NCBI GenBank assembly: GCA_965218585.1
Contig: CBDCLE010000001.1
Span: forward strand, 206,436-270,435
Origin: Terriglobia bacterium
Lineage (GTDB): Bacteria > Acidobacteriota > Terriglobia > 20CM-2-55-15
Direction of reading: 5' to 3'
DNA length: 64,000 bases
A program made the position numbers and the translations under genes. This document shows, piece after piece, positions 46,215-49,745 of the stretch. The notes under the pieces are model-generated. The model was not told where the DNA came from and made no database searches. It saw only the letters and a program-made list of their open reading frames with translations. Position 1 is the first letter of the stretch; every line of letters starts with the position of its first letter.

Positions 46215-47973
46215 TTACGCGGCGATGGCGTCAAGGATCTCGCGTACAGTGCCAGTGAGTTCGTTCAAGGGGAAGGGTTTTCGGAGAAGTCCATCAATAC
46301 CAATAGTTTTGATCGCAGCGAGCCGTTCCGGGGCCGCATAACCGGTTGCAACGAGTACCTTGGTGTGGGGATGAAGCTGTCGAATGGATTTCAATGCCGT
46401 CAGGCCGTCCATGACCGGCATGATCATGTCGAGTATGACGAGATCGACATCAGGGGTTATCTTCTGCAGTGCCTCTGCTCCGTTGGAAGCCGTTAGAACC
46501 GGATACCCCGAATGAGACAGTGAGGTTTCCATCAACTCCAGCAGGTGCGGCTCGTCGTCTACCACGAGGATCGTTTCGCCGCCTTCCGCCATCGCTGATT
46601 CGACAATGTCCGTTGTTCTGATCTTGTTCTTGGCAGGGGGAAACCAGAGACGGAACTCCGTCCCTTTACCCGGCGAGGTCTCCACATCGATACTGCCGCC
46701 ATGGCGTTCGATGGTGGCGTAGGCCATGCTGAGTCCAAGGCCCGTACCCTGGCCGCGTTCCTTCGTTGTAAAAAATGGATCGAAGATCTTATCGAGAACT
46801 TCGGGTTCAATCCCCGGACCCGTGTCCCGAACGCTGAGTCTCGTGCCTTCGTTTTCTGCCCGTGTCTGGAACGTGATCGAGCCTTCTCCCTCCATGGCAT
46901 CGCGGGCGTTGACGGCGAAATTGATCAACATCTGGGTCAGTTCGCCTTCATCGGCCTCGACCATCGGTACGTTCTCGTCAAGATCGAGCCGGACCTGGAC
47001 CGTGCGTTCCAGCGTTTCCCCGAGCAGTTGCTCGGTAGAGCGCACGACCTCGTTCAGGATCAACGGTTCAACAGAGGGCGGCTCGTCCCGCGCCATTGAC
47101 AGGAGCTGTCCGGTCAGCTGTGCGCCACGCCTGGATGCGTCCACGATTGCGTCCAGTCTTGGACCACGTTTTTCCGGCGTGTCCCGCAACTGAATCAATT
47201 CTGCAGTGGGTAGAATGATGCCCAATATGTTGTTGAAGTCATGGGCGATCCCGCTGGCCAGGGTCCCGATGGACTCCATTTTCTGACTGCGGACCAGCTG
47301 GTGCGATAGCTTTTTCTGTTCGGTGATGTTTCGAACGATGACGGAGACTCGAAGCGAATCTGCGACGGCGCTGACCAGTCCGACGAGCGTCTGACCGCTC
47401 GAAGAACGAAACTCCGCTTCGAAATCCTGAACCGAACCTTCTTTCCGGACACGCGATTCGAAACGTTTCCCAGCTTCCGGATCCATGAACAATTCCTTAA
47501 GGTCGATCCATGTTTCCGAAGGGGACGAGATGAGGCCGGCCGCTTGATTCGAGTCGATTATCCGGAGATCGGGCGTGCAGATATAGACCGCATCCTGCAT
47601 CCGTTCGACAAACGTTCTGTACTTCGCTTCAGATGCCTTCAATTCTTCATAGAGCTCGATGTTGGAGAGTGCGCTCGAGAGTTGGGGAGCCACCATCATT
47701 AAGGTGCGCTGCTTCGTCGGCGAAATTGACGACGGCGCTTCATCGCTCAACATCAAGAGAGCCTGGCAGGTATCGCGGGCAACCAGTGGGACGAGGAGCC
47801 AGGACCGAAGCCCGCGAGGGAAGGGCCATTCGGTTTCGAGGGTTTCTTGATCGAGATCCTCGATTACGATCGGCCGGGCATTGTCGTTGAAGCGGGCGGG
47901 AAGCACGGACAGATCAAACGACGCGGGGAAGTTCGTCTCACCGAACACCTTCGAGACAGCCTGCAGGTCATAC
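46215..47973 (-). pseudogene. GAF-PAS hybrid sensor histidine kinase, C-terminal part (disrupted by IS110)
   Basis: GIAHDFNN, NARDA, DTGPG, FFTTK, GTGLGL and a receiver domain (DD, D, K); rejoins 49531-49745 in frame to give 657 aa. Confidence 0.9.
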
Positions 47974-48080
47974 GCTATAAGGAAGGACGCCCCTTTGTCG
48001 GCTGTTGCCAGGAGGAAAATCTCCCGACAACAACCCATTCAACGTAGCTGCGTTGAATTCAAAGACAAAGGAGCACGTAA

Positions 48081-49142
48081 ATGAAACAGGCCAAGTATAT
48101 CGGCATGGATGTGCACCAGGCAACGACGGTGGTGATGGTCTTAAACGCAGACGGCAAACTGGTCTGGGAAAAGATCGTAGAGACCCAGGCCGGGCCAATC
48201 ATTGATTTGCTGGAGAGTCTGAGTGGTGAGCTGCACGTGACGTTTGAAGAAACCACGCAGGCCGAATGGCTCTACAACGTGGTCCGGGGATATGTGAGCG
48301 AAGTGATCGTGTGTGATCCCAGACGGAACAAACTGCTCAGTGACGGGTCCAAGACCGACCGGGTGGATGCCCTGAAACTGGCCGAGCTGCTCCGGGCCGG
48401 ATGGCTGCGGTCGGTCTACCACGGGCACGATGCGACGCGGACGTTGAAAGAACTGGTCCGCGGATATGAGACCTTGACCCTGGATACGCAGCGGACGATG
48501 GTTCGGATCAAGGCAATGTATCGAGGACGTGGGATCCGGACGCCGGGCCACGGCGTCTACCTCCCATCGCAGCGGGAACACTGGATCGAACAGCTCGCCA
48601 ATACCGGTGCACGGCGGCGTACCGGATGGTTGTATGAGGAGCTGGATCATCTGAGAGGGTTAAGAAAAAAAGCGAAGCTGGCGATGTTAACCGAGAGCCG
48701 CAAGCATCGTGCGGTGGGGATATTGCAGACGATTCCCCAGTTGGGACCGATACGTTGCGCCTTGATTGTAGCGACGGGGGACACCCCGCATCGATTTCGA
48801 ACCAAACGCCAGCTCTGGAACTACAGCGGTCTGGCCGTGGCAATGCACATGAGTGCGGAGTATGAGCAGGAAGGGAGTCGTGTGGTACGTCGTCGAAAGC
48901 CGATCGCCACGCGGGGACTGAACCGCAACGGCAACCGACGTTTGAAAGGTGTGTTCATCGGGGCGGCGACCGGAGGCATGGGGGCCGAACCTTGGAAAAG
49001 CTACCTGGAGGGGCTCCAGAAAGACGGCAAGCGTAAGGAGATGGCTCGGCTGACACTGGCGAGGAAGATTGCAGCGACCGCACTGAAGATGTGGAAGAAA
49101 GGAGACACGTTTAACGCAAAGAAACTGAACTTGGCGACATAG
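48081..49142 (+). CDS. IS110-family DEDD transposase/recombinase
   Basis: IGMDVH, FEE, KTDRVDA; C-terminal TIPQLGP, RF, YSGL...HMS, GNRRLK, ARK; AAGGAG RBS. Confidence 0.93.
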   Translation: MKQAKYIGMDVHQATTVVMVLNADGKLVWEKIVETQAGPIIDLLESLSGELHVTFEETTQAEWLYNVVRGYVSEVIVCDPRRNKLLSDGSKTDRVDALKLAELLRAGWLRSVYHGHDATRTLKELVRGYETLTLDTQRTMVRIKAMYRGRGIRTPGHGVYLPSQREHWIEQLANTGARRRTGWLYEELDHLRGLRKKAKLAMLTESRKHRAVGILQTIPQLGPIRCALIVATGDTPHRFRTKRQLWNYSGLAVAMHMSAEYEQEGSRVVRRRKPIATRGLNRNGNRRLKGVFIGAATGGMGAEPWKSYLEGLQKDGKRKEMARLTLARKIAATALKMWKKGDTFNAKKLNLAT

Positions 49143-49157
49143 CCGTTTCCAGACTTC

Positions 49158-49343
49158 TGCCGACAGCGCGAGGCATTCGACCGCTCGTCGTCGGTGAGGC
49201 GTCGGAACGGTAGGGTCGAGGGTGAGGATCCGATACGCGGTTGGCACACAGCGCTTGCTGAAGGCCCATGTAATACTCTATCCCCCCTCGCACGACCTGG
49301 AAAAGCGATAGCCCTCGAGGCTCAGATAGAACCGTGGTCGGCA
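49158..49343 (+). ncRNA. Putative bridge/seek RNA of the IS110 element
   Basis: Two internal-loop hairpins. Segments 49232-41 and 49267-76 match the target flanks; 49326-32 matches the donor end. Boundaries approximate. Confidence 0.8.
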
Positions 49344-49530
49344 ATCACGACCCCTTTGCGCTTTTCAGTTTCTCGAAACCACACCACGTTGTGATGAGTG
49401 ATCGACTTCTCTGCGATGCCGGATCAACAGTTCGTCTCAACGGAGACAGGGGCTGGCTGCCACGACAGTGTTGGGTCCGGTGGTCCGCTCGGCGGGGACG
49501 TGTTTCTCTTGACAGCCCCTTCCATAGAAC

Positions 49531-49745
49531 CGCGTCTCATGGCTTCGACGGTACAGGGTCGCGTGCTTCGATAGTGTTGTTTCAGCAATGACTTCCACCA
49601 ACTCCTCGGAAAGCTCGCGCGTGGAGGTGTGGCGACTGATCGCTTCGCCCACGCAGCTCACGAAAGAAAGCTCGTCGATCTTGGACCGGAAGGCCGCGTC
49701 CGCCCGTTCGAGCGCTGCGCTTAACTGAGAAGTGTCGTCCTGCAT
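49531..49745 (-). pseudogene. N-terminal part of the IS110-disrupted hybrid kinase
   Basis: MQDDTSQL...LYRRSHETR joins YDLQAVSK after the IS is removed. Confidence 0.85.

Follow-up and report, generated by a model that had tools for sequence, protein, structure and literature searches.

A recently active IS110-family insertion sequence of IS1111-type layout in an acidobacterial genome, with a probable two-loop guide RNA in its 3' non-coding end

Sequence analysis of the window, a 64,000-nt stretch of an acidobacterial contig, pointed to an active insertion sequence of the IS110 family with an IS1111-type layout, whose 3' non-coding end would encode a bridge/seek RNA; on comparative sequence evidence, we place the probability of this reading at about 0.88. 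The element occupies positions 47974-49528 on the plus strand and measures 1555 bp without the core dinucleotide. A first-pass annotation of the same DNA had proposed an IS110/IS1111-type recombinase together with a two-loop RNA in the 3' non-coding end, and this proposal held, both IS110 domains being detected in the recombinase and the order and position of the matches to the DNA being those of IS1111-type elements. The strings that it had quoted were all recovered where it had placed them, including ATAGAAC at 49326-49332, TGCCGAC at 49158-49164 and GTCGGCA at 49337-49343. The element itself is composed of the following features:

47974-49528, plus strand: insertion sequence, core excluded (16 copies with shared sharp ends)
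47972-47973, plus strand: left AC core copy, the last two bases of the left half-target (AC in 16 of 16 copies)
49529-49530, plus strand: right core dinucleotide copy, AC in the window copy (AC in 10, AA in 5 and GC in 1 of 16 copies)
47975-47986, plus strand: left subterminal inverted repeat CTAT(AA)GGAAGG, the reverse complement of 49518-49527 plus a 2-nt insertion
49518-49527, plus strand: right subterminal inverted repeat CCTTCCATAG, as read from the sequence
48081-49142, plus strand: recombinase gene, 353 aa (PF01548, E 3.5e-17; PF02371, E 8.3e-9)

The genome examined (26 contigs, 4.55 Mb), that of a soil-type bacterium, harbors 16 full-length copies of the element with identities of 99.8-100%, which vary at 5 alignment columns and in all of which the recombinase gene is open. 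Similarity among the copies breaks off at the identical two bases in 16 of 16 cases, which fixes the element ends. The window copy interrupts a gene for a hybrid sensor histidine kinase/response regulator (46215-47973 and 49531-49745, minus strand). Once the element and a single AC are taken out, the reading frame is open over 660 aa, and the flanks are colinear and gap-free with the orthologous genes of four same-genus genomes, whose empty sites hold a single dinucleotide at the joint. The colinearity of the flanks with the empty sites thus indicates that the ends are exact and that the AC core comprises the only duplicated bases, no other target bases being duplicated by the insertion in comparison with these four sites. 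The inverted repeats of the window copy share 10 matching bases with a 2-nt gap, and those of its relatives form a perfect 9-bp TATGAAAGG pair. Non-coding DNA extends over 107 nt before the start codon of the recombinase and 386 nt after its stop codon; in the latter stretch, between the predicted RNA and the right end, a block GGGGCTGGCTGCC (49449-49461) is kept even in relatives of 50% identity.

Both domains typical of IS110 recombinases were detected above their cut-offs, namely the N-terminal DEDD RuvC-like domain (PF01548, 63.1 bits, cut-off 29) and the C-terminal IS116/IS110/IS902 domain (PF02371, 36.2 bits, cut-off 21.3), and the NCBIfam IS110 model NF033542 matched over its full length with 129.2 bits, under its cut-off of 140. 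The residues D10, E56/E57, D93, D96 and S258 were invariant across nine homologues of 49-82% identity. D10 and D93/D96 align with the ISCro4 chain, and S258 was assigned by eye, with a neighboring A rather than G. The serine motif, likewise read by eye from the translation, is G250-L-A-V-A-M-H-M-S258-A, in which G250 and S258 are invariant in the relatives; it does not match the published IS1111 C-terminal motif GL-P----S(t)G (occasionally TA), having V for P and A for G. The recombinase matched the PDB structures of ISCro4 (E 1.3e-9) and IS621 (E 3.5e-7), with tblastn identities of 26.5% to ISAzs32 (E 6e-14) and 25.9% to IS621 (E 4e-6), and identity to plasmid-borne IS110-family genes was at most 28%. 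Kin of the recombinase were present in 15 of the 61 related genomes searched, counting its own. A scan of one genome per species, from which the best 80 of 516 confirmed stretches were retained, returned sequences titled almost exclusively Acidobacteriota or Terriglobia.

The region downstream of the recombinase gene was analyzed for conserved RNA structure, and the predicted RNA is described by the following features, in which the names of the modules and guides denote putative roles:

49143-49211, plus strand: 5' hairpin directly 3' of the stop codon (predicted in 10 of 10 relatives)
49217-49290, plus strand: target-binding module (outer stem 49217-49229/49280-49290, inner hairpin about 49243-49266, two guides in the internal loop)
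49293-49340, plus strand: donor-binding module (outer stem 49293-49297/49336-49340, inner stem 49310-49313/49319-49322)
49233-49241, plus strand: 5' target guide, reverse complement of ACCGCGTAT (16-site logo; mean of 7.25 of 9 matches per site)
49270-49276, plus strand: 3' target guide GUAAUAC (16-site logo; mean of 5.19 of 7 matches per site)
49302-49307, plus strand: 5' donor segment AAAGCG (pairs weakly and discontinuously with the second core base and with left-end bases 1, 2, 3 and 5)
49326-49332, plus strand: 3' donor segment AUAGAAC (same sequence as the right end plus core)

Folding of positions 49143-49360 yielded the 5' hairpin followed by two modules, each built of a stem, an internal loop and a hairpin; the target module is closed by the strands CGAGGGTGAGGAT (49217-49229) and ATCCCCCCTCG (49280-49290), and the donor module by CGACC/GGTCG (49293-49297/49336-49340) around an inner AGCC/GGCT stem (49310-49313/49319-49322). 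Taken singly, the sequence folds with no unusual stability (z -0.30, with 72 of 200 shuffles folding equally well or better); the support for an RNA comes from covariation and not from folding energy. Among eleven aligned 3' ends the stems were invariant and the loops variable, and RNAalifold on 10 sequences returned four helices with 24 pairs in all. These 10 sequences served to build a covariance model, a step that the first-pass annotation had suggested; of 93 related loci, 90 gave a hit to the two-loop RNA, in every case downstream of the recombinase gene and on its strand. In the element's own genome the model detected exactly the 16 copies, with no orphan RNA gene among the 150 scored of 2163 first-look candidates. 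Across 61 distinct sequences, 94.7% of the cells were paired, compared with 37-51% when the partner strand was slid, and double (compensating) changes occurred in 15 of the 24 pairs, none of 500 shuffles reaching any of the observed measures. These changes were spread over all helices: 5 of 11 pairs in helix 1 (97.6% paired), 4 of 4 in helix 2, 4 of 5 in helix 3 (95.7% paired) and 2 of 4 in helix 4 (99.1% paired). Additionally, the closing stem of the 5' hairpin reads CCGUUU/AAACGG in one clade and GAGCGUCUC/GAGACGCUC in a distant one. G-U pairs were frequent on the sense strand (U-G in 40 of the 61 rows at pair 14/154, G-U in 23 at pair 184/218), and since these would be A-C on the opposite strand, they fix the strand that folds. 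No Rfam family reached its gathering threshold; three matches, each with an E-value of at least 0.92, lay far below gathering, and none of them fell within 49143-49340.

An outer closure of the whole RNA by TGCCGAC/GTCGGCA, which the first-pass annotation had considered, was not supported by the comparison, there being no compensating change in 10 relatives and only 4 of 7 pairs in the distant ones. As the preferred fold this closure was rejected, in that it competes with both the conserved 5' hairpin and the CGACC/GGTCG closure. In one of the 16 copies (L016, G000:C1:6956-8509), the run of C in the target module's outer stem is shorter by a single C, at the equivalent of window position 49282, and the covariance-model score falls from 126.7 to 117.5 bits.

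The alignment of the 16 insertion sites revealed a left-flank consensus GTAATAC and a right-flank consensus ACCGCGTAT, which joined read GTAAT-AC-CGCGTAT. With the core counted in, the site logo carries information at only 7 left-hand and 9 right-hand bases. The window copy alone had led to the prediction of an AC core and of an ideal target close to GTAAT-AC-CGCGTATC, and the 16-site consensus bears out both. The target so defined is a 14-bp word, GTAATACCGCGTAT, that occurs in ordinary genes. The segment 49233-49241 is complementary to the top strand of the target and 49270-49276 to its bottom strand; the latter segment equals the top strand of the left flank plus core and would thus pair with the bottom strand. 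A repeat finder likewise reported 49232-49242 and 49528-49538 as complementary (91% over 11 nt). The boundaries first drawn for the two guides were slightly too wide. From the 5' guide GATACGCGGT (49232-49241) the site logo retains AUACGCGGU (49233-49241), G49232 facing an uninformative position, and from the 3' guide CATGTAATAC (49267-49276) it retains GTAATAC (49270-49276), the CAT at 49267-49269 facing uninformative positions.

As these segments had originally been picked from the flanks of the window copy, the fair test lies in the other 15 copies. The consensus of their sites agrees exactly with the prediction from the guides (GTAATAC on the left, ACCGCGTAT on the right), in keeping with the expectation of the first-pass annotation that further copies would insert at related sites. 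Moreover, the window copy disagrees with the RNA at two informative positions, and at both of them the other sites side with the RNA (A in 13 of the 15 at one position and in 10 of the 15 at the other). A perfect match to the guides occurs at no site among the 16, the best reaching 15 of 16 positions, and no free perfect 14-mer target occurs in the genome; near-targets number one with 1 mismatch and three with 2, which is not above a reversed control pattern (8). Two individual insertions are worth recording here: L007 matches at 7 of 7 positions in the left half and 4 of 9 in the right, and L006 at 3 of 7 and 3 of 9 unless a 1-nt shift is allowed.

The comparison was then extended to relatives with other loop sequences. 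In an 82% identical element (G007), GATAAGCGGT replaces GATACGCGGT, and the right flank reads ACCGCTTATC. Multi-copy relatives in four further genomes (G002, G021, G001 and G048) carry unrelated loop sequences, each of which fits its own site consensus, and three of these four have a TC core, which recurs both in the 3' target guide and in the 3' donor segment. For a systematic guide-flank test, both element ends were located in 79 of 91 RNA rows, giving 43 distinct guide pairs, the remaining 12 rows being left out where fuzzy end patterns missed one or both ends. The 5' guide matched its own right flank at 7.09 of 9 positions and the flanks of other pairs at 4.47 of 9, and the 3' guide matched its own left flank at 6.60 of 9 and those of other pairs at 3.73 of 9; none of 10,000 permutations was as high as the observed total, and this control is conservative because related pairs share guides. 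Covariation between guides and targets among homologues, which the first-pass annotation had put forward as a check, is thus observed over 43 guide pairs, in which the stems are kept and the loops change with the flanks. Two loci (L084 and L078) have an AT core, which the two junctions share with the 3' donor segment and the 3' target guide; with AT cores in some relatives, C is not universal at the second core position of this clade.

In the second module, the 3' donor segment holds the last 5 right-end bases plus the core in 73 of 79 loci, which extends to the clade the identity of ATAGAAC with the right end plus core originally noticed in the window copy. Its variants (ATAGAAC, ATAGATC, ATAGGAC, ATGGAAC and ATAGGAT) change jointly with the right end. 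The 5' donor segment is less regular. Among 23 distinct combinations it pairs with left-end (LE) bases LE1, LE2 and LE5 in 23 of 23, with LE7 in 20 and with LE4 in 18, and rarely with LE3 (3 of 23), LE6 (1 of 23) or the core (4-5 of 23). LE1 shows one switch from C-G to U-A and LE4 three pair types, and the total of 111 paired cells, against 102.7 in shuffled data, was equaled in none of 5000 shuffles. In the window element AAAGCG pairs with CGCTAT with one mismatch. Discontiguous pairing has also been described for one donor guide of IS621 (Durrant et al. 2024, PMC11208160). The first-pass annotation had suspected a weaker partner segment on this side, and the weak, discontinuous pairing of AAAGCG bears it out in part. 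The alternative register then offered, AUAGC against GCTAT, fits the window element only and was rejected: relatives with left ends GCAGTAT or GCATTAT retain the same RNA letters, and the AGC is part of the covarying inner stem.

The irregular pairing of the 5' donor segment leaves some room for an explanation in which only the first module guides (a seekRNA in the narrow sense), the second being a protein-binding scaffold and the element ends being recognized through their subterminal inverted repeats. Such repeats are present at both ends, the segment does pair poorly at the core, LE3 and LE6, and in ISEc11 an 82-nt RNA with the target loop alone is reported to have supported higher transposition than the long form (PMC11187229). 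To this may be added, as a point of very little weight, that contigs from RNA libraries (two runs of one study) both break off at 49302, a position just behind the first module. A pure scaffold would not account for the covariation of the 3' donor segment with the right end outside the core (ATAGA, ATAGG, ATGGA), present in 73 of 79 loci, nor for the compensating changes of LE1 and LE4 with the 5' donor segment, and the donor module also shares the layout and spacing of the target module. We therefore regard the scaffold explanation as improbable and prefer a second module that reads the element ends, with the qualification that, as the short ISEc11 RNA sufficed without its second module, this loop may be dispensable.

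Far less probable is that the complementary segments act as single-stranded DNA, in the manner of the subterminal guide sequences of IS200/IS605 elements. Complementarity alone cannot separate DNA from RNA; the stems, however, accept many G-U pairs when read on one of the two strands but not on the other, the segments are situated 200-300 nt from the element ends and away from the cleavage sites, and the protein belongs to the IS110 family, for which RNA purified with the enzyme (PMC11187229) and RNA seen in structures (PMC11208158) have been reported. That the matches arose by chance, or as a by-product of picking segments resembling the flanks of the window copy, is refuted for practical purposes: the segments were indeed chosen by their likeness to one site and matches of 7-10 nt are easily found, but 15 independent sites and 43 independent guide pairs agree, and where the chosen site departs from the RNA the other sites follow the RNA.

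Two motifs at the element ends suggest how the RNA-guided reading preferred here could be put into effect:

49509-49514, plus strand: TTGACA, candidate -35 half of a junction promoter (in the right end of nearly all related elements)
47976-47981, plus strand: TATAAG, candidate -10 half of a promoter formed only in the circular RE-AC-LE junction (right end, core, left end), as read from the sequence

When the ends are joined, TTGACA is followed by 14 nt, the 2-nt core and 2 nt before TATAAG, that is, by an 18-nt spacer, and no sigma-70-like site was found on the plus strand of the linear copy. In IS1111-type elements the sole promoter is reported to be formed by the joined ends, and their RNA is enzyme-bound, purifies with the enzyme and is required in transposition (PMC11187229). 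For IS621, two dimers are described as holding the two loops, with the top strands cut 3' of the core and exchanged first (PMC11208158). By analogy with these systems we infer all steps from transcription to catalysis, as follows. The element would leave as a circle, whose RE-AC-LE joint would act as a promoter reading through the recombinase gene into the 3' non-coding region, as family precedent suggests. The transcript would fold into the 5' hairpin and the two modules of stem, internal loop and hairpin, a structure to which the covariation points. The two guides, whose complementarity to and covariation with the target are observed, would pair with and so read both strands of the 14-bp target, overlapping on the AC core, and the donor module would hold the circle junction, with a well-supported 3' segment and a weak 5' segment. 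The putative DEDD/Ser recombinase, bound to both modules, would swap strands at the core in a manner suggested by the IS621 structures. The outcome, one AC on each side and no further duplication, is observed directly.

RNA-library contigs from two metatranscriptome runs of one study contain a variant 95-99% identical to the window over 48989-49302 and 49130-49302, including parts of the recombinase gene; both end at 49302, just beyond the first RNA module, and both leave the guides 49233-49241 and 49270-49276 unchanged. Contigs of this kind cannot show transcription, transcript ends or strand, and DNA carry-over is possible, so that we do not count them as evidence. Neither joints nor circle junctions occurred in contigs from four runs.

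The two junctions of the element differ in their fidelity to the core. All 16 copies have AC as the left dinucleotide, whereas on the right AC is present in 10, AA in 5 and GC in 1, the AA and GC being apparently the target's own bases. Over 104 unique insertions in the clade, the RNA core recurs at the left junction in 102 and at the right junction in 91, and both left exceptions are miscalled ends. The well-called deviations at the right junction number seven, six of them from the element's own genome, after those with degenerate or miscalled ends (L023, L029, L086, L137, L135 and L072) were set aside; for L121, with GC on the right, the left end was uncalled. If the 5' guide is equated with the left target guide of IS621, we infer from these few events that the pattern would be the product of the first (top-strand) exchange only, 3' of the core. 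Both patterns would be expected if a staggered double exchange were followed by replication, which argues for either the transfer of one strand or cuts at the same bond. On these grounds we put forward, tentatively and as somewhat less probable than its negation, that natural insertions record the product-fixing exchange, with either a single strand passed on and its partner made by copying, or cleavage of the two strands at the same bond. A copy-and-paste route through a single-stranded circle has been proposed for IS621 in vitro (Xie et al. 2026). The asymmetry would offer a natural read-out of the order of strand exchange and is directly testable.

In two relatives (L063, G048:C8, with two adjacent copies; L108, 2643-3051) one copy has its junction precisely at the DNA that encodes the 3' target guide of a sibling. 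Since the 3' target guide has the sequence of the left half-target, the element's own RNA gene constitutes a half-matching target. Both these joints and the half-matching insertions fit the same picture of one-strand transfer or same-bond cuts.

The nearest described relatives in layout are the IS1111-type seekRNA elements ISEc11, ISPa11 and ISKpn4 (Siddiquee et al. 2024, PMC11187229), which have a long non-coding region downstream of the recombinase gene, as here. The architectural marks of the IS1111 group, namely the downstream non-coding region, the subterminal inverted repeats and the match order, were all found in the window element. In that account, as in our data, the top-strand match lies 5' of the bottom-strand match and the two overlap where insertion takes place, the ends carry subterminal inverted repeats (7-17 bp in the IS1111 group), a promoter arises only from the joined ends, and natural retargeting among close relatives keeps the stems and swaps the loops, as between ISEc11 and ISXne4 (PMC11187229). 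The window element departs from this group in its distant sequence, in the S-A that follows G-L-A-V in its serine motif, in its acidobacterial host and in a target that is no obvious repeat (REP, attC or transposon end). With the IS621 bridge RNA (PMC11208160, PMC11208158), as described in those reports, the predicted RNA has in common a hairpin at the 5' side and a pair of internal-loop modules laid out in parallel, in which each loop would read both DNA strands and include the 2-nt core, and the recombinase here has candidate counterparts of the DEDD and Ser residues. The second core base is also the more constant one in both, being T in IS621 and C in most relatives of the window element (AC, TC and rarely AT cores). 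The two differ in the position of the RNA, which is 3' of the gene here and 5' in IS621 with the guide order relative to the gene reversed, in the core (AC versus CT), in the donor loop, where the strong guide here reads the right end and the reader of the left end is short and discontinuous, and in the proteins, which are about 26% identical. Many IS1111 orthologs are reported to have their donor-binding bases in a multi-loop (PMC11208160), whereas the donor module here is a simple internal loop like that of IS621.

The element is therefore a divergent member, of IS1111-type layout, of the RNA-guided recombinases first described in 2024, and constitutes neither a new system nor a new principle. 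For 93% of IS1111-group elements, the right end has been predicted to contain a bridge RNA (Durrant et al. 2024, PMC11208160, Fig. 6 and Extended Data Fig. 10), so that the kind is already known, and the clade may itself stand in the supplementary tables of that study. A limited search of the literature on bridge RNA in Acidobacteriota returned no description of such an element. What the element adds is a well-documented and recently active lineage with a 353-aa enzyme less than 30% identical to the characterized ones. Its 43 natural loop/target pairs, together with three core dinucleotides (AC, TC and AT), comprise a ready-made retargeting experiment. The same series could help to tell guide from scaffold positions of the RNA in the 3'-encoded (IS1111-type) architecture, which has received less structural work than IS621 and ISCro4.

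A minor observation concerns the wider kinship of the recombinase. Residues 128-289 (48462-48947) matched the NCBIfam model for the RNA-guided endonuclease TIGR-Tas below threshold (34.3 bits against a cut-off of 100), which agrees with the published kinship between IS110 recombinases and Nop5-like RNA-guided proteins.
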